The notes beneath the pieces were generated by a model. The model ran no database searches and had not been told where the DNA came from. It saw nothing but the letters and a program-made list of their open reading frames with translations. From the IMG/VR virus record IMGVR_UViG_3300038678_000291, positions 19,018 through 83,017 of that record: 64,000 bases of DNA; one strand, 5' to 3'. Shown piece by piece: positions 700 through 62,900 of this stretch. Origin of the DNA: a virus. Position numbers and translations under genes: made by a program. How positions within the stretch are numbered: position 1 is the first letter of the stretch; every line of letters starts with the position of its first letter.

Positions 700-1450
700 T
701 CCTTTCTTGATTGGTGGTAAGTGGTGGCTGGCAGGACTTTCATCTCCCTGCCTGGAACGGTTCCCCGCTACTCGCTTCGCCCCGATCGGAAAAGAAGCTC
801 TTGGTGCATGCCAAAACCGCAGCCACCACATCGTTCACCAGCCCCTCGCCTCGATCCCGGTTGCAGTCGGCGAGCCCACCCTGTGATTCCCCGCTGGCAT
901 AATTAGTTTGTCCCCCGCCCCCCTGGTTCCCTGTATTTCCCCACCCAGAGGATTAGGCCGCCCAATGTCACATCACCTCGGCCAGCGGGGAGCATTAGGT
1001 TCCCTGCGGGCAGCTTGCTCATGTACGCTGCGGATAGCCTCCAGCCTTGACAAGTGGAATGCAAAGGCACTGTCTGGCTATTTTCCCCTATCTGTCCACC
1101 ACTGATACCGCAGGGAATCTTGTCAAAATGTGGATGGGCATGCGCTAGCCTTTGTCAACGCCGTTAACTCTCCCGAAGGATACAAAGGCGGGCCGACGCC
1201 ACCCCAGAACCATGGGCGTACTCAGCATTTCTGCCTATCCGTTTCCCTGTTTAATGTGCGGGCTTACACATATACCCAAGTCGGTATTTGCCCATCCACA
1301 TTGTCAAAGTGCAGTTTGTTTGCCTAGCTCTCCTCTCTCCAGGCTTGGCAGCCCCTAGGTCGTACTCACCACCGCTGCTACCCTTCCATTTCCTGTTTGC
1401 TCTAGCCTTACCACATCCTCAGCTTGGGCAAGCTTCAGTCGTTACTGGCT
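700..1450 (-). ncRNA. Putative large multi-domain structured non-coding RNA
   Basis: No coding-strand ORF >=60 aa over ~750 nt of a gene-dense phage. Perfect helices at 721-730/820-829, 1000-1009/1108-1117, 1127-1140/1289-1302 and 1148-1155/1182-1189, with a cUUCGg tetraloop on the minus strand. Confidence 0.65.
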
Positions 1451-5690: not shown

Positions 5691-5703
5691 TGCTCTGCCT
5701 TTC

Positions 5704-5763
5704 ATGTTAAGGTTAACTGCCTGGCCCAACCTACCACAAGGCGATAAGCTGGATAGAAAGTTA
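5704..5763 (-). repeat. Intergenic hairpin repeat, copy 1 (diverged)
   Basis: Minus strand TAAC-tttct-atccagcttatc...ggtaggttggg-ccaggca-GTTAACCTTAACAT. Confidence 0.7.
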
Positions 5764-5970: not shown

Positions 5971-5982
5971 GATACTGCCCCC

Positions 5983-6044
5983 CATGTTAAGGTTAACCGC
6001 CTATCCCAACCCACCCGGTGGATGGGCTGAAGAGGGAGTTAAGC
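5983..6044 (-). repeat. Intergenic hairpin repeat, copy 2
   Basis: GCTTAAC-tccct-cttcagcccatcc-acc-gggtgggttggg-ataggcg-GTTAACCTTAACATG. Confidence 0.8.
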
Positions 6045-6599: not shown

Positions 6600-6612
6600 G
6601 GTTGGTTCTTTT

Positions 6613-6670
6613 TTAAGGTTAACCGCCTATCTCAACCCACCCCGGCGGATGGGTTGAGGAGGAAGTTAAG
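6613..6670 (-). repeat. Intergenic hairpin repeat, copy 3
   Basis: CTTAAC-ttcct-cctcaacccatcc-gcc-ggggtgggttgag-ataggcg-GTTAACCTTAA. Confidence 0.8.
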
Positions 6671-13306: not shown

Positions 13307-13478
13307 GCGCTTACCAGGAGGGTAGTTTGGAGATTAGCGGGGTAAAGACATAGAGCAGTGGGTTGGGCTTTCTGAATGCGAAAATGAGGCTGTGGTGAAG
13401 CTAGAGAGGTAAACCATGGTTTACCAAGGATGGTTGAAAAATGGACAATGAAATTAGAAAATTAAGGGACGGCAGAAA

Positions 13479-14084
13479 ATGATCACCCATCTTTGCGTCC
13501 AAAATCCTGTTGCAGGTGAACTTAAAGGGGTTTGCGTTGTTTGTGGCCAACAAACCCTTACTGGATATAAATTACCTTTTTCGGATAATTTCACAGGATA
13601 TTCCTATTTGTCTCATGGGGACTTAACCTGTCCCCGTTGTTATACCTTTTTCAAAACCCCTGAGTTTAGGCGAAAATCATGGATAGCTTCTCAAGACGGA
13701 GTCCTATATCTGAAGCGCCTTGAATGCAGGCAGCATATTCTTAATCCCCCAACTCCACCGTTTTTTCTTTATATTACCAAAACCGGACAAAGACAAGGGT
13801 GGTTATCTGCTTTGAAACTTATGAATTATAGTCAAGGCAGATTTTATATTTCAACGGATTGGGTGGGGCATTTTTTGGTTGAAAGGAGCGAAGCACTGAT
13901 AATGGCTACTCAAATTGCATTTCTTAGGGAACGGGAAATTTCAAAAACTACTCTTTTAACTGGCAATCCTAGCATGAAACAATATAGGCTTGCCATAGAG
14001 GGTGGGTGGGAAGGAGAGTTTGGAAAAATTAGAAAATATGTTAAACAACCACTTTGGGAGGTGATGGTATATGTCTCTGAATGA
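13479..14084 (+). CDS. csf1: Type IV CRISPR-Cas Csf1 (Cas8-like large subunit)
   Basis: N-terminal zinc finger CVVCG...FSDNFT...CPRC; NPPTPPF...TGQRQGW; first gene of the csf operon. Confidence 0.75.
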   Translation: MITHLCVQNPVAGELKGVCVVCGQQTLTGYKLPFSDNFTGYSYLSHGDLTCPRCYTFFKTPEFRRKSWIASQDGVLYLKRLECRQHILNPPTPPFFLYITKTGQRQGWLSALKLMNYSQGRFYISTDWVGHFLVERSEALIMATQIAFLREREISKTTLLTGNPSMKQYRLAIEGGWEGEFGKIRKYVKQPLWEVMVYVSE

Positions 14085-14418
14085 GGCACAAGAAAAGGCC
14101 CTGGTTGAATTTCTGGCTATAGTTTATGGCCGCATTCCCTGGGGAAAAATGCGGACATCAAAAAACCCCCATGATATTTTCAATCATCGGGTGCGGGCAG
14201 CTACCAGAAGGGCGACTCTTTATGGGTTTGCCTCAAAACTGTGTAATTATTTTGGGCTTCAAACATTACCCCTTGAGGCTCAAGCGTTGCTTGATTTGCT
14301 GAGGCCAGAGGAGCAGCGAATATTAAGCACCTTATCCTCAGAACATATTCCCTGGTGTGTTAGGGGGATAATCAGATCAAAAGAGATGAAACTCAAAAAC
14401 AAGGAGGCCGGCAAATGA
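14071..14418 (+). CDS. cas11: Type IV-B small subunit (Cas11-like, Csf4)
   Basis: Small helical protein between csf1 and csf2, the canonical IV-B position. Confidence 0.65.
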   Translation: MSLNEAQEKALVEFLAIVYGRIPWGKMRTSKNPHDIFNHRVRAATRRATLYGFASKLCNYFGLQTLPLEAQALLDLLRPEEQRILSTLSSEHIPWCVRGIIRSKEMKLKNKEAGK

Positions 14419-15251
14419 TTGAGAAATATGATGGCTGGATATTAGCCAAAAGCACCATTCATCATGGCGGGAACGAGAAAACCGGCAGCACCCCCGTACT
14501 TAGAACAATCTATCTGTATGTTGAAGGCCAGGGGGAAATACCCTTCCCATATATCAACGGTAATGCTATTAGAGGTAAACTGCGAAGGCTGCTGATGCGG
14601 GAGTTTTTTCAGCTTATAGGATTAGAGCCGGAAAATCTCAAAACCAAACTATATCATATTTTTTTCACCGGGGGAGTATTAACAAGTACCGAATCTTCCT
14701 ATGCTACAGTGGACTTGGAATTAAGGAAAGAAATCCGTCGGTTGCTACCCCCGCTTGCTTTGCTTGGCGGTGCCATTGGAAACCAGATGATACCGGGAAA
14801 GCTGAAGGTGGGCCACGCTTTTCCTGTTTGCCAGGAATATGCTCAATATCTTCCTGAAAGGCTAAAAGCAGATAAACGGGTTGGCATGTCGGTACGAAGC
14901 TTCACCGATGAGTCGTTCAATACCAGAAAAGATGATTTGCGGGCAGGTCGGGCAGAAGATGAACAGGCGACCCAAATGAAAATAGAGTTTGAATGTTTCA
15001 TTCCTGGCACAAAATTCTATCACTGGTGGGTGCTGGAGTGGCCCACAGAAATAGAAAAAGCCTGTTTCGGCAGATTGATTGAGGTCTTTCAATCATCTCC
15101 TTTTGTTGGGGGGAAGTTGTCTTCCGGCAACGGAGATGTGATGTTTGAGTATCAACCAAAAACACCTTCAGCACAACCGTATTTGGAGTTTGTGCTGAAA
15201 CACAAAACGGACATCCTTCCACTTCTTCAGACCATTGAGGACAAGTTATGA
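14415..15251 (+). CDS. csf2: Type IV Cas7-group RAMP backbone Csf2
   Basis: STIHHGG..KTG, PYINGNAIRGKLRR, FFTGG.L, LLGGAIGNQMIPGKLKVG, TQM...E.FIPGT, VGGKLSSGNG G-loop. Confidence 0.9.
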   Translation: MIEKYDGWILAKSTIHHGGNEKTGSTPVLRTIYLYVEGQGEIPFPYINGNAIRGKLRRLLMREFFQLIGLEPENLKTKLYHIFFTGGVLTSTESSYATVDLELRKEIRRLLPPLALLGGAIGNQMIPGKLKVGHAFPVCQEYAQYLPERLKADKRVGMSVRSFTDESFNTRKDDLRAGRAEDEQATQMKIEFECFIPGTKFYHWWVLEWPTEIEKACFGRLIEVFQSSPFVGGKLSSGNGDVMFEYQPKTPSAQPYLEFVLKHKTDILPLLQTIEDKL

Positions 15252-15988
15252 TTGAGCAAGAAATGACCTATTTCCTTGATTCTTTCCTTTTGGGGACATC
15301 AAGAAGATATAGACCAATGAAATACGAGTCATTAAAAATCACCTTTTGGCTTTCGGCCCCCATATCTCTTACCCACCCCTGGATGCACTTTGATGGGCTT
15401 ATAGGACATCTCTTGACGATAGATGCTCTTGGGCAGGATTTTTATTTACTGCCCAGAAAATTCCCGCTTTCTCGTATGCTTCGGCAAGTAAAGATTCCAC
15501 CGTTTCCCATCAAACATACCAGGGGAATGTATCACGCCTCGGCATCCATTTTTGATACCGGCAGGAAGTCTCTTGAAATTATGTATAAAAAATTTGAGGA
15601 TCGGTGGGCAGGCGGCAGAAGAAAAGTATCTAAGGGAATGGGATATTTTCGGGACTATATGATCCAACACATCTATATTCCCACAAAAACCGTAATATTC
15701 TATGTAATGGGAGACAGAAAAACTTTGGAGCAACTTTGTCACTTGGTAACAGGGTTAGGAGACAATACCCGCGTAGGGTGGGGAGCGGTGAGAAGACATG
15801 AGATAGAAGACATGCAACAAGATTGGAGTATTATAAAAAATGGGATTGCTATGCGCCCTATCCCCGAAAAATTGATTGAATACACTTCCTTAAAAGTTGC
15901 TGTGGCCTGGAAACCCCCATATTGGGCGCCAGAATGTGTTGGAATATGTGCACCACCTGGTGCAGAGGTGAAACTGAAAAATGGATAA
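15248..15988 (+). CDS. csf3: Type IV Cas5-group RAMP Csf3
   Basis: LKITFWLSAPI...FDGLI, YHASA, LGDNTRVGWGAV G-loop, MRPIP...KPPYW. Confidence 0.85.
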   Translation: MIEQEMTYFLDSFLLGTSRRYRPMKYESLKITFWLSAPISLTHPWMHFDGLIGHLLTIDALGQDFYLLPRKFPLSRMLRQVKIPPFPIKHTRGMYHASASIFDTGRKSLEIMYKKFEDRWAGGRRKVSKGMGYFRDYMIQHIYIPTKTVIFYVMGDRKTLEQLCHLVTGLGDNTRVGWGAVRRHEIEDMQQDWSIIKNGIAMRPIPEKLIEYTSLKVAVAWKPPYWAPECVGICAPPGAEVKLKNG

Positions 15989-16673
15989 ACAGTGGAGGGA
16001 AACATTTTTGCTTCATGCCAGAAGCGAAGAATATATCCAAAAAATTCAGGAAGCAGAGTACAATATTTTAACTACCCTTCTGCGATATAAAAAACCCTAT
16101 GTGGCCTTTTCTGGGGGTAAGGATTCAACCTGTATGTTACATTTAGTATTGCAGCAAGCTTTAAATACGATGATTTTACATTGGGATTATGGCAGATTTT
16201 ATATTCCTTACTACCTACACAACGAATTAATAGAAAACGCACGCAGATGTGGAGCAAAAAATCTTCGGATAGAAACATCTAGTCTATATGAAAAACTTGG
16301 CCGAAAGGCAATTAATGTATTGGGTAAAGAAATGATGGAAAAACTTATCCCTCAACTGATAAAAGAAGGCTACGATGTTGTTTTTGTTGGCTTACGAATA
16401 CAAGAATCAGTTAAACGGAAACTAAGAATCAAAGCAGGGAGAAGCCTTACAAATATTTTTGAAGTATGGCCATTAAAAAACTGGTCATGGCTTGATGTAT
16501 GGGCATATATCATCTCCAGTAAAATTCCTTATCTTTCTTATTATGATAAATATGCTCCTGTTGTGGGATGGGATAAAGCTAGGTTCACTACTTTGTTTGA
16601 TCCCGAATTTGATAAATTTGGCTGTTCTAATGTTGATGGAATATTGTCTTGGAAATATAGGAATTTAATATGA
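15981..16673 (+). CDS. cysH: CysH-like PAPS-reductase family protein of type IV-B
   Basis: PP-loop YVAFSGGKDS, GLRIQES..R, PLKNWSWLDVWAYI. Confidence 0.88.
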   Translation: MDKQWRETFLLHARSEEYIQKIQEAEYNILTTLLRYKKPYVAFSGGKDSTCMLHLVLQQALNTMILHWDYGRFYIPYYLHNELIENARRCGAKNLRIETSSLYEKLGRKAINVLGKEMMEKLIPQLIKEGYDVVFVGLRIQESVKRKLRIKAGRSLTNIFEVWPLKNWSWLDVWAYIISSKIPYLSYYDKYAPVVGWDKARFTTLFDPEFDKFGCSNVDGILSWKYRNLI

Positions 16674-16736: not shown

Positions 16737-17396
16737 ATGCAAACTCACGCCTTGCAAGACTTTCAATCCAGTAGGATTAGCGTTACTGGCCTGTTTAATG
16801 CTCCCCAAGAGCAAGCATTACGGGACTGGAACAATGTCCTTGCGAAAATAAATCTCACTAATCTCCCCCATACCCCCCAACAGGTTGCCGAAAACCGCCA
16901 GGCAGCCCTTCAAATATATCGAATTAGGTTTGACGAAAATGCCCTGAATGCCTTATCGCAAGCATTTAGTCAGTTACATGTGTGCTGGGTAAATGGTGAC
17001 CCCCCGTTTGAAATTATCCAGCAAATTATTTCCCACCTAAACCAAGACTTACTTAACCCTTTCTCTGGGCTTGTACATTATCGTAGCAGCTTCGCTAGCA
17101 TGGAGTCCCGTTCTATAGATATATCTAAAGACAGATCAAGAGGTCGGGGTTTGTGTTTAGTACATCCGCAAAAGCAGGCATTATGTAAAGGATTATGTAA
17201 TAATTGCTATGAAAAAGCACGGAGACTAAATCTGTTGCACCTTGATTTGGGAGTCTGGCTATCGGTATTGTTGAAAAGGCGCAAGCCCAGAGATGTTTCT
17301 CAGTGCGTTAACCACGCAAAGATACAATCTTATGCTGACGGCCTGTGTGTGGAGTGCCTACATAGGTTGGGAAAGCTGAATAAGAATCTACTATGA
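16737..17396 (+). CDS. Hypothetical protein with two C-terminal CxxH-x7-GLCxxC zinc-finger-like repeats
   Basis: CLVHPQKQALCKGLCNNCY and CVNHAKIQSYADGLCVECL. Confidence 0.5.
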   Translation: MQTHALQDFQSSRISVTGLFNAPQEQALRDWNNVLAKINLTNLPHTPQQVAENRQAALQIYRIRFDENALNALSQAFSQLHVCWVNGDPPFEIIQQIISHLNQDLLNPFSGLVHYRSSFASMESRSIDISKDRSRGRGLCLVHPQKQALCKGLCNNCYEKARRLNLLHLDLGVWLSVLLKRRKPRDVSQCVNHAKIQSYADGLCVECLHRLGKLNKNLL

Positions 17397-18158: not shown

Positions 18159-19082
18159 ATGATTAAAACACTTGCTATTCACGGAGGCGGAATTAGGGGG
18201 ATTATTCCAGCGGTAATATTAAATTGGATGGAAAAACATGTCGGTAAGCCAATTGCGGAAATATTTGATTTAGTCGCAGGCACTTCCACCGGTGGGATTC
18301 TAGGGGCAGCCTTAAGTATTGGGTTCACCGCCGAAGATATAATTGGGATGTACGAATATGAAGGAGAGCAAATTTTCCCTCAATCTGTATGGCGAAGTTT
18401 ACACACCATTGGCGGTGCCGCCGAGGAGAAATACCCGTCGGGAGGAATTGAGGCAGTGCTACAAAAGTATTTTGGTACCCACAAACTATCTGATGCCGAA
18501 ACAAATCTTATCATTCCCACCTATGACATAGAGCGCAGACGCCCAATTTTTTTCAAATCGTATAAAGAAAAATTTAAGACTATTTTGATGTGGCAAGTGG
18601 CTCGGGCTACCTCCGCAGCCCCCACATTTTTTGAACCGTACAAATGGTATATGCCCAACGGCGATTATTTTTCTCTTATAGACGGGGGGATGTTTGCTAA
18701 CAACCCGGCCATGTGCGCCTATGTAGAGGCATTGGCTGAGTTTGATGCAACTGATTATATGGTAGTCTCATTGGGTACTGGGTCAGCAACACAACCAATT
18801 CTACATGAAGACGCACAGGGTTGGGGGTTGGTTGGGTGGGCACCGCATATTCTTGATATTAACTTTGATGGCCAATCAGACACAGCAGACTATCAACTTA
18901 ATCGGCTTTTGCCATTGAATAGATTCTATAATTTTCAGCCCATGTTAGTTGGCGTAAATGAGGCAATGGATGATGCCAGCCCTGAGAACATCCGGGCATT
19001 GAAGCTGCTGGCCGAAAACTATATTGAAGACAATAAGTCAATGCTGGAGGCTCTTTGCGATATTCTGGCATATCAAGTTTAG
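18159..19082 (+). CDS. Patatin-like phospholipase
   Basis: GGGIRG oxyanion motif, GTSTG catalytic Ser, ATSAAPTFF, DGG..ANNP. Confidence 0.93.
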   Translation: MIKTLAIHGGGIRGIIPAVILNWMEKHVGKPIAEIFDLVAGTSTGGILGAALSIGFTAEDIIGMYEYEGEQIFPQSVWRSLHTIGGAAEEKYPSGGIEAVLQKYFGTHKLSDAETNLIIPTYDIERRRPIFFKSYKEKFKTILMWQVARATSAAPTFFEPYKWYMPNGDYFSLIDGGMFANNPAMCAYVEALAEFDATDYMVVSLGTGSATQPILHEDAQGWGLVGWAPHILDINFDGQSDTADYQLNRLLPLNRFYNFQPMLVGVNEAMDDASPENIRALKLLAENYIEDNKSMLEALCDILAYQV

Positions 19083-59931: not shown

Positions 59932-62900
59932 TGTTTACTTTTCCCGCTAATTTCATAACTGAAATGCTCAAGAATGCAGGCGTAGAGTGGCGTACCCTGC
60001 TGGAGATAGAGGCAGCCAGCACGCTATACTATTCTGATCAGAAACTTACCGTTGACGCTCAAGTCTATTCGGCTATGGTCAAGGGTTTTGGTAAGGTACG
60101 AAATGGTAGAGCAGGCGTAGAGTTATATAACATCCCTAGAATAGATGACCAGATTAAACCGGGACAAACGATTACTTTCTACTTCTGGATGGTAGGGCTG
60201 GCCTCTGGTGACAAAGCCAAGATTTTTAAGGGTGTCATTAACGAAGATATTAAGGGCGGGGCACCTACATTATCATTTACTTGCTCTGGTATGGGCGAGT
60301 GGTTTGATAAGGAAATTTTGCAGCCATTATCTCCAGCCAGCTATCCCAATGCTGACCCCAGTTATTATGGCCGATTTATACCCGAAATACTTGGGGTAGT
60401 AAAGAATATTGAATGCCTGCCCATAGAAGCGGGCATGGCGACTACTCTGCGGGCAGATATTACCTCAAGCCAGACCACAATTGAAATCACGGATTATGCC
60501 CATGAGAGCCTTGCATTCCCCTCCTCCGGCACTGTATTTATTGGTGATGAGAAGATTACTTACACTAGTATTACTCAATCAGATACCCCCACGCTAAACG
60601 GCTGCACCAGGGGGGTAAGCGGTACTACCGCTACATCGCATAGTTATGGCGATGCGGTACTAGAAGATGTGGCCAGTGTCAAATATAAAATGTGTCAGTC
60701 TGACACAACCAATCCAATACAAGCTATGACCAAGCCCCGTATTATTCCCCTGGGCAGGACCGTAAAAGAGGCAGTGCAGATAGATGCATCTGATTACTCG
60801 ACCAACTTAAATACAGGAGAATTTACCTTAACCAACCTGCCAGCTATCAGACGCAAAATAGCCATTGCGGTAACTCAACAGCCCACCCACACAAATCCCG
60901 TTCAACCAGACCAGCCAATTACTACTCAGCCTATAGTTGATGTAACTCCGGGCACTCACGACCATATAGAATCTCAGCAAACCATTTCACTGTTCATGGA
61001 TACCAACTCAAATTTTGGGTTTTCTTCAGTATTAAATAACGAAAGAATTGTGAATGGTAAATTCACCGAATCTGGTTCTTGGGACCCGAATCTTTCAAAC
61101 TGGGAAATCAAGGTGCAGATGTCGGCCTATGCCGGATATTCTGGCGATTTGGTAGAAGGTAGAATTAAAGCCAGGTTGTGGCGGTCTGTATCAGCAGATT
61201 TTACTGCCCAAACAAAATGGTATGTCAATGGTGGGTTGAAAGAAAGCATAGATTGTGTGCTAAATGATGCTCCAGTAACTTATACAGGAGCATGGAAAAC
61301 CTTAACGAGTAATGACTGGGCGGATTTTCTTAATTCTAATAGCTATTTGACTGTATCCTCTTCTTCAGGGATTCCATCTGGCATAATTTATGGCAATGAG
61401 GTGTGGTTGGAAATTAGATTTACCCCCCCATCCCCCAGCAAAATCCTTACCTCCCCCAGAACTACCGATACCGTCAGTAACAGAACTACTGATATGGATT
61501 ATACGCAACAAGACGCCCTAGTAGGCGGTGATTCGGTGACAGATGCTTTTGGGGGGCCGCTTATAGCCAATGCTGAAGGGCGCAAGGATACTTCTGGTGG
61601 CCATTACACTGGCACACCCAATGCCCTGATAGAAAAACCCTGGGAGCAAATTCATTTTATGCTGGAACAATTCGGCAACGGTATAACCCACAGTGACATA
61701 GACATTTCTGGTTCGTTTGCTGACTGCGATACTAACTTGCCAAGTAACTGGAAATGGGGCTTTGCCATAACCAAAAATCTCCACCTGAATATCTTATTGA
61801 AACGGCTTGAACTACAAACCTGGTGTCGTTTTAAATGGGGGTTGGATGGGTTGGCCCGGCTGGAGCGCATTAAGACCAGCGGAACATCTATCAGGACATT
61901 AAATACCAACAGTGATTGCTTCCTTAGCGGGAAACTAGGGGATACCAACAGAGAGCTACTAATAAAATTCAGACGGCCAAAGTTAAACCAGCTTGCCAAT
62001 AAAGTAGCTGTGCAATATCTCCTTGACCCTACCCTGGGGCATTGGAGCAATCCTGATGCATATGATGAGATAATTGAGGATTCTGATTCAGATAGCATAA
62101 CTGAATATGGAGAACGCAAAAAAACCTGGAGAATGTGGGCGGTAAGAGATGACACTATGGCTCAGACATTGCGGGGGTACTTGCTGGATTATTACAAAGA
62201 CCCCAGGCAGGCTGTTTCCTACCTTACGGATTGGACACAGCTTCAATTACAAAGCAATGATTTGGTGGATATAATTAGCCAGCCTTCGGGAATCAGCGGG
62301 AAACATAGAATTTTTGATGTGGCCTATGATATGCCCATACCGCTCAGAGACAAAGGATTAAAGGTTCAGCTTACCCTGGTTGATCTGTTATCGGGGACTT
62401 TATTGCTTCCCGATCCGATCAGTTGTATTGCTGCTGGTGTTGATCCAACGACAGATGTAACCTTTTTAGTTGTTCCTATTCCCGCTGGATGTATAGCTAC
62501 TGGTGTTGATCCAGGGGTGATATTAGGCTCAACGATTGCCATACCTTCCCCCGCTGGATGTATCACTACTGATACCCGGTATTTCGATTCCAGTATATAT
62601 TTTGATTCAACTAGATATTTTGGTGTCCTCCCAATTGTGATACTAGGTTCAACAACTGCCCTCCCTGCTCCTGCTAATTGCATCACCAGCACACTGATAG
62701 GACTTGTACATACTGGGCACTTAGTTATTCCTGCACCTGTTGGCTGTATTACTGCTGGTGTTGATCCTGGGGTAATTTTAGGTTCAATAATTACCACCCC
62801 CGCCCCTGCTAGCTGTATAACTAACAGAGTTAATCCAACGATAGTTATAGGCGCAGAAGACTTAACAACTTATACTGAAGTTGACCCGAATAGTCGCATA

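Follow-up and report, generated by a model that had tools for sequence, protein, structure and literature searches.

A stretch of 64,000 nucleotides (nt) of viral DNA, bases 19018-83017 of the linear 83,017-bp IMG/VR virus record IMGVR_UViG_3300038678_000291 and hereafter called the window, carries a type IV-B cassette of the CRISPR-Cas kind (short palindromic repeats, clustered and regularly interspaced, with their associated genes). The cassette is very probably an intact, canonical type IV-B module in its minimal five-gene form, borne as a horizontally mobile accessory on a tailed phage from marine sediment, with its RNA obtained in trans and the CysH-like enzyme CasCysH as partner of the complex. 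Taken by themselves, identity and intactness of the canonical IV-B cassette are as good as certain.

Five co-oriented open reading frames (ORFs) occupy positions 13479-16673 of the + strand. Successive ORFs overlap by 14, 4, 4, and 8 nt, and a Shine-Dalgarno-like motif precedes every one of the five start codons; the genes make up a single operon with coupled translation. Subunits were typed using the PADLOC CRISPR models and the fifth gene using Pfam, resulting in the following assignments.

13479..14084, + strand: csf1, Cas8-like type IV large subunit of 201 amino acids (aa); PADLOC Csf1_0_IV, 8e-31.
14071..14418, + strand: cas11, type IV small subunit of 115 aa; PADLOC Cas11_0_IV, 3.2e-34; overlaps csf1 by 14 nt.
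14415..15251, + strand: csf2, Cas7 backbone subunit of 278 aa; PADLOC Csf2_0_IV, 6.3e-71, full length; ATGA overlap with cas11.
15248..15988, + strand: csf3, Cas5 subunit of 246 aa; PADLOC Csf3_0_IV, 1.4e-51; ATGA overlap with csf2.
15981..16673, + strand: cysH-like gene (CasCysH), PP-loop ATP pyrophosphatase with the fold of 3′-phosphoadenosine 5′-phosphosulfate (PAPS) reductase, 230 aa; PAPS_reduct PF01507, 7.7e-17; overlaps csf3 by 8 nt.

A first-pass annotation of the window had named these five overlapping genes, placed them between RuvC and lysis and proposed typing by hidden Markov models. The genes and their overlaps were confirmed, the typing as IV-B was borne out (8e-31 to 6e-71 for PADLOC, 8e-17 for Pfam PAPS_reduct), and the location was correct, with one unannotated 219-aa ORF before the endolysin.

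Residues that are invariant in the ortholog alignments are all retained, including the PP-loop of CasCysH and the four cysteines of the Csf1 zinc finger (C19, C22, C51, and C54), each of which is invariant in 37 orthologs. An AlphaFold2 (AF2) model of Csf1 (predicted local distance difference test, pLDDT, 96.2) was compared with the Protein Data Bank (PDB), giving significant matches only with type IV-A Csf1 (7xg1_A, 5e-7; 8rc3_G, 3e-5; template modeling (TM) score 0.61 for both). A profile of 30 Cas11 orthologs matched the type IV-C Cas11c chain 11fs_N (4.7e-4). Similarly, a profile of 37 Csf3 orthologs matched the type IV-A Csf3 chains 7xfz_B (7.7e-9) and 8rc3_F (5e-8). For Csf2, the nearest solved chain in a single-sequence search was 7jhy Csf2 from the Mycobacterium type IV-B complex (3.7e-17); with the clade profile, the top-ranked chain was a type IV-C Cas7c. 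If the PDB and the paper number residues alike, Thr26 of the window protein aligns with the putative catalytic Asp42 in the solved Csf2; Glu21, which belongs to the same loop, is invariant across this clade. The alignment therefore speaks neither for nor against target-RNA cleavage by Csf2.

The cassette is the minimal canonical five-gene IV-B form, with no extra accessory gene. No TGT/DpdA homolog was found in this genome, Csf1 carries no clamp-binding tail, and the neighbor families that recur at related loci, including a ParB-like family and a DUF3440 PAPS-reductase, have no counterpart in this genome.

All 83,017 bp of the record, with the 19 kb outside the window (L002), were searched for a guide source and for further cas genes. 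The record is ~79% complete by CheckV, leaving about one-fifth of the phage genome outside all absence searches. CRISPR-like repeats were found neither in tandem and interspersed scans of the window and L002 nor in a mini-array scan of the whole record, and Rfam, including its CRISPR repeat families, returned no CRISPR-DR, the sole match being a tRNA-Met. Six-frame searches of the 83 kb detected no Cas6 (PF01881, PF09618, and PF08798), no Cas1 (PF01867) or Cas2 (PF09827), and no Csf4/DinG (TIGR03117). These direct family searches underlie the absence of cas genes, since the PADLOC screen of all ORFs spans only 25 families. RecD was absent among the neighboring genes (resolvase and 219-aa ORF), no dedicated RecD search having been made. 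The lack of array, cas6, cas1/2, and dinG that had been noted for the 64 kb thus extends to the complete record.

Likewise, neither arrays nor mini-arrays were present up to 10 kb from the cassette in 66 related viral loci (0/66). No guide source, be it array, mini-array, Cas6, or conserved neighboring non-coding RNA (ncRNA), occurs in the 83 kb or beside the scanned related cassettes. With no guide source in cis, the RNA is in all likelihood supplied in trans and unrelated to the phage RNAs that had been flagged as candidates.

Two array-like candidates were rejected. At L002 4856-6863, a repeat with a period of 69 nt falls within two ORFs, and its copies, 62-74% identical, represent a protein repeat. 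A supposed second, lone Cas7-like gene (234 aa) with a putative pentamer array gave no PADLOC match and a probability of 0.8% in hhalign against the Csf2 profile. The adjoining ORF-free stretch of ~840 nt (L002 12540-13378 in genome coordinates, minus strand, downstream of the 234-aa gene) contains no CRISPR-type units and gave no Rfam match; its minus strand is G-rich (36.6%) and C-poor (12.3%).

At E ≤ 1e-10, Csf2 had 281 homologs. Identity was 51-76% for the best 120, whose contigs were assigned to many bacterial and archaeal phyla. A profile scan yielded relatives on 66 IMG/VR viral contigs and at 18 loci in cellular genome assemblies (84 loci). Room on both sides of the cassette was available at 45 loci. 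Among these, tblastn detected the complete set of five genes at 28, colinear in 28/28, and CysH at 41. The usual tblastn miss was the short Cas11; blastp clustering recovered a Cas11-family ORF in 67 fetched loci. The cysH gene overlaps csf3 or follows it within 10 nt at 46 of 63 loci, and the five-gene order persists down to ~30% sequence identity. The genes flanking the cassette in the window are missing from related loci, except for one DUF5131 match (L007). Many of these loci have terminase and portal genes close by, the cassette often being just upstream of both. The cassette therefore passes from one phage backbone to other, unrelated ones.

Median identity to the window proteins was 57% for Cas11, 54% for CysH, 53% for Csf2, 40% for Csf3, and 39% for Csf1. 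On these values, the filament subunits Cas11 and Csf2 together with CasCysH appear as the constrained core, and the predicted caps Csf1 and Csf3 as diverging faster. The counterparts of Csf1 and Csf3 in other class 1 complexes read the guide handle and the target flank. The broad taxonomic spread of the conserved core may argue, weakly, against a lineage-specific ligand such as the CRISPR RNA (crRNA) of a given host.

Many related phage loci carry a ParB-like family (25 loci) or an unannotated family of ~220 aa (10 loci) by the cassette or between csf3 and cysH. A second, longer DUF3440 PAPS-reductase occurs in the same two positions in related loci. Examples of these neighbor families are found at L071 5280-8382, L047 5852-7136, and L006 4538-6440.

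In CasCysH, the SGGKDS PP-loop and the HWDYG and GLR-EES-KR motifs are invariant in 38 orthologs. No cysteine is conserved in the same set; the residue at the sole C-terminal one (FGCSN) can be C, A, S, N, or G, and the C-terminal catalytic cysteine of the ECGLH type that attacks the sulfonucleotide in a bona fide reductase of PAPS or adenosine 5′-phosphosulfate (APS) is lacking. CasCysH has been described as having a PP-motif and no catalytic cysteine (PMC8175902), which the window copy reproduces. The AF2 model (pLDDT 89.6) was searched using Foldseek; top matches were CysH (6vpu), the PAPS domain of flavin adenine dinucleotide (FAD) synthase (8ron/8rom), TtuA (5b4f), CysD (1zun), LarE, and TilS, all about equal at TM scores of about 0.5-0.6, so that no family stands out. 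Against the CysH equivalog TIGR00434, CasCysH scored 31.8 bits (cut-off 165), and every NCBIfam match was far below its cut-off. As the ATP-binding loop is kept and no cysteine is conserved, adenylyl transfer is likelier than sulfur chemistry, and CasCysH may, tentatively, be taken as a partner of the complex that transfers adenylyl groups. Its coupling to the complex is suggested by gene linkage and by similar evolutionary rates.

The start of CasCysH at 15981 (230 aa) is backed by the N-terminus MxxxWRETFL, which is conserved in orthologs. A public protein collection lists the protein as 221 aa, apparently owing to a later start call (window 15981-16007); the 230-aa form is the better call.

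Several observations weigh against an intact canonical module with CasCysH as its partner. The NCBIfam equivalogs for Csf1, Csf2 (TIGR03115), and Csf3 score 30, 51, and 61 bits versus curated cut-offs of 140, 130, and 140, and the NCBIfam models alone would leave the three proteins unnamed. The G+C content at third codon positions (GC3) is 0.32 in csf1 and 0.28 in cysH versus a mean of 0.45 (standard deviation 0.06) for 13 other window genes, with 0.41-0.46 for cas11, csf2, and csf3; the low values could reflect horizontal acquisition or, alternatively, a mosaic cassette. Other genes stand between csf3 and cysH at 17 of 63 loci, and ortholog identities of CysH and the Csf proteins are only weakly correlated (Spearman 0.25-0.49): CasCysH is linked to the complex, not welded to it. 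Finally, an array or cas6 may possibly lie in the missing fifth of the genome.

Judging from the solved IV-B complex (7JHY) and the type IV-A complexes, Csf2 and Cas11 would polymerize as a double filament on ~55-60 nt of RNA, which Csf3 and Csf1 would cap. The RNA would arrive in trans, as unselected transcripts or host small RNAs and not from the flagged phage regions. By PP-loop enzymology, CasCysH would split ATP at the alpha-beta bond and pass AMP on to a substrate that the complex holds or that lies near it; PAPS reduction and sulfur transfer would not take place. The pay-off for the phage would most likely lie in conflict with host defenses or competing mobile elements. That the Csf filament is an RNA-bound platform bringing CasCysH to nucleic acid for adenylylation or marking, in counter-defense, is a further reading which we regard as rather improbable. 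RNA-scaffolded nucleic-acid modification has been outlined before in the literature (PMC8175902, PMC13676074).

An array-less, phage-borne cassette would also suit a sponge for small RNAs or crRNAs, a bulky anti-CRISPR in which the Csf filament soaks up host guide RNAs that remain unused. The RNA bound by the solved IV-B complex is heterogeneous and uniform in length, and the authors of that work raise the sponge idea (PMC7937560). A sponge offers no role, however, for an almost invariably linked CasCysH with an invariant ATP-binding loop, and the core is 51-76% identical across many bacterial and archaeal phyla with differing CRISPR types and repeat handles. Pinilla-Redondo et al. judged a sponge unlikely for its complexity (PMC7038947), and unlikely is also our assessment. 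Both the crRNA sponge and an RNA-directed PP-loop enzyme are published hypotheses, and the present data fit both alike.

Hijacking of guides, whereby the complex takes up processed crRNAs from a CRISPR-Cas system of the host or from a co-resident one in order to bind rival elements or host genes and, via CasCysH, to mark or silence them, would make use of the full Cascade-like subunit set and of Csf1, which resembles in fold the large subunit that binds DNA in type IV-A. Mini-arrays are found in a few viral IV-B loci elsewhere (Fuxivirus, PMC10848311). Against this, neither this record nor the 66 viral loci contain an array or a solitary repeat, and co-expressed crRNAs failed to be loaded in the single experiment done (PMC7937560); hijacking is distinctly improbable.

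Partner RNAs encoded by the phage itself had been put forward in the first-pass annotation, with a 0.7-1.45 kb region and hairpin repeats at 5.7-6.7 kb as candidates. Both regions are real oddities. The first comprises an ORF-poor, GC-rich (~50%) stretch (window 831-1449) with several inverted repeats, among which is a perfect 14-nt pair at 1127-1140 and 1289-1302; it could be an origin or a regulatory region. The second holds a ~41-nt repeat family with four occurrences of a shared core, confined to the 5.7-6.7 kb region in the genome, as follows.

5695-5735, 5975-6015, and 6601-6641 of the window (also 6263 and 6878), upstream of minus-strand genes: copies of the ~41-nt repeat, core TTAAGGTTAA.

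The repeats stand directly before the start codons in a row of small minus-strand genes, suggestive of an early promoter, operator, or ribosome binding site in reiterated form. Folding of 700-1450 was compared with dinucleotide shuffles, giving z = -0.02 for the proposed minus strand and a weak z = -1.86 for the other strand. Sequence around the cassette (10 kb) in the 66 viral loci was compared with the candidate regions (0.7-1.45 kb and 5.6-7.0 kb) and with two short operon flanks; blastn gave nothing significant and nhmmer no counterpart, and Rfam gave no match in either candidate region. Both regions belong to the opposite transcription arm, 7-12 kb from the cassette. Nor was any non-coding element conserved beside the cassette in the retrieved viral and cellular loci; csf1 abuts or overlaps the upstream ORF in about half of the loci, and flank similarity between loci is confined to near-identical contigs. 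An origin of the partner RNA in these regions is highly improbable, and of the earlier interpretation as a whole the typing stood and the phage partner RNAs did not.

A decaying remnant, acquired by chance and no longer functional, would account for the lack of array, nuclease, and known function and for the low GC3 of csf1 and cysH, which suggests a foreign origin, but it is barely credible given five open and tightly coupled frames, the retention of all family-invariant residues, and a five-gene order that persists to ~30% identity.

Upstream of the intact cassette, the 172-nt spacer preceding csf1 shows no excess folding (z = +1.16) and contains two features.

13408..13425, no strand: perfect 18-nt palindrome GGTAAACCATGGTTTACC, 53 nt upstream of csf1, unique in the window.
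13434..13462, + strand: weak sigma-70-like promoter match TTGAAA-17-GAAAAT, 9/12 consensus, just upstream of csf1.

A conserved palindrome or operator upstream of csf1 was rejected as a cassette component: across 69 loci, the best palindrome arm had a mean of 5.33 nt versus a background of 5.22 nt. Because no such enrichment occurs upstream of csf1 elsewhere, GGTAAACCATGGTTTACC is possibly a local operator at most and not a conserved part of the cassette. Sigma-70-like matches in the csf1 upstream region are no commoner than in shuffles, and the promoter is a consensus match only. Repeats bounding the cassette were also rejected, short matches being present at chance level only.

The DNA was traced to one sequencing run, a marine-sediment metagenome, which is probably the source sample; no RNA run was listed as containing it. 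Family matches to portal, major head, tape-measure, terminase, RecT, and RecE occur elsewhere in the record, and judged by the portal, head, tape-measure, and terminase matches the carrier is a tailed phage. Its host is probably bacterial, because of the amidase endolysin and the Shine-Dalgarno motifs. A nucleotide search of GenBank phages gave no match, and no tyrosine integrase, which would point to a temperate lifestyle, was found in the 83-kb record (~79% complete). A replication-initiator-like gene, a DUF5131 protein, an HNH endonuclease, and a Holliday-junction resolvase lie upstream of the cassette. The nearest neighbors are as follows.

Directly upstream of the cassette: Holliday-junction resolvase, phrog_1770, 2.7e-22.
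16737-17396 of the window, + strand: 219-aa ORF between cysH and the endolysin, with two CxxC pairs.
Downstream of the 219-aa ORF: amidase endolysin, phrog_822, 3.9e-29.
18159-19082 of the window, + strand: patatin-like phospholipase, just after the endolysin; Pfam, 1.9e-24.

The 219-aa ORF matched no Pfam, NCBIfam, or PHROGs family and has no counterpart near related cassettes. PADLOC models for phospholipase effectors of the CBASS type (cyclic-oligonucleotide-based antiphage signaling system) match at 7e-72, the patatin-like gene being the likely source. A role of this gene as a signal-activated effector tied to the cassette was rejected, with no CD-NTase in the genome and no patatin near related cassettes; the gene may serve as a lysis accessory or be an orphan effector homolog.

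The 83 kb contain a single tRNA gene, a tRNA-Met (CAT) at L002 10579-10653, minus strand (ARAGORN; Rfam 71 bits). Periodic coding repeats of 66-69 nt (23-aa units) occur in large ORFs at L002 4856-6863 and window 62399-62571. Both record ends seem to belong to one structural module, related coding repeats adjoining the structural-gene block.

The IV-B locus of the Mycobacterium sp. JS623 megaplasmid (PDB 7JHY; PMC7937560) has the same gene set and no dedicated array or Cas6. It is carried by a plasmid, whereas the window copy is on a tailed phage and represents a distant clade, with a Cas11 too diverged from that of 7JHY for a sequence match. The same five genes occur on the Mp_virus_41kb of Methanoperedens, also without an array and with the same counter-defense speculation (bioRxiv 10.1101/2023.08.02.551345), and on viruses of the Bathyarchaeia ('Fuxiviridae', PMC10848311), among which Fuxivirus has a mini-array, unlike this phage. 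In contrast to these two cases, the host here is probably bacterial. IV-B on prophages and lytic phages has already been reported (PMC7038947, PMC10848311). Type IV-A (Csf1-Csf2-Csf3-Csf5 with CasDinG; 7XG1, 8RC3) has Csf1, Csf2, and Csf3 homologous to those of the window, which has no DinG, Cas6/Csf5, or array and carries Cas11 and CasCysH instead. CasCysH shares its fold and nucleotide-binding loop with PP-loop ATP pyrophosphatases (CysH, CysD, the PAPS domain of FAD synthase, TtuA, LarE, TilS, and DndC), from which it differs in having neither a conserved C-terminal catalytic cysteine nor Fe-S cysteines. Array-less IV-B on viruses is an already published kind, to which the locus adds another example.

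To our knowledge, type IV-B is the sole CRISPR-Cas subtype without a known function, and the role of the CysH-like partner is an acknowledged open question. As of September 2026, its function and full architecture are still called unclear in the literature (PMC13676074), and the earlier statement that RNA partner and function of IV-B are unresolved agrees with PMC7038947, PMC7937560, and PMC13676074. The locus leaves the question of function unanswered; it adds a clean, intact, and minimal example on a bacterial-type tailed phage. The comparison of 84 loci narrows the options, as no guide source or conserved non-coding element travels with the cassette. The same comparison points to slowly changing Cas11, Csf2, and CasCysH versus faster Csf1 and Csf3, and to an enzyme that appears to keep its ATP chemistry with no conserved cysteine. 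Should the filament indeed be a platform for CasCysH, IV-B would be an RNA-scaffolded modification device and not an immune effector or a passive sponge, and the minimal five-gene phage copy would define the smallest sufficient set.

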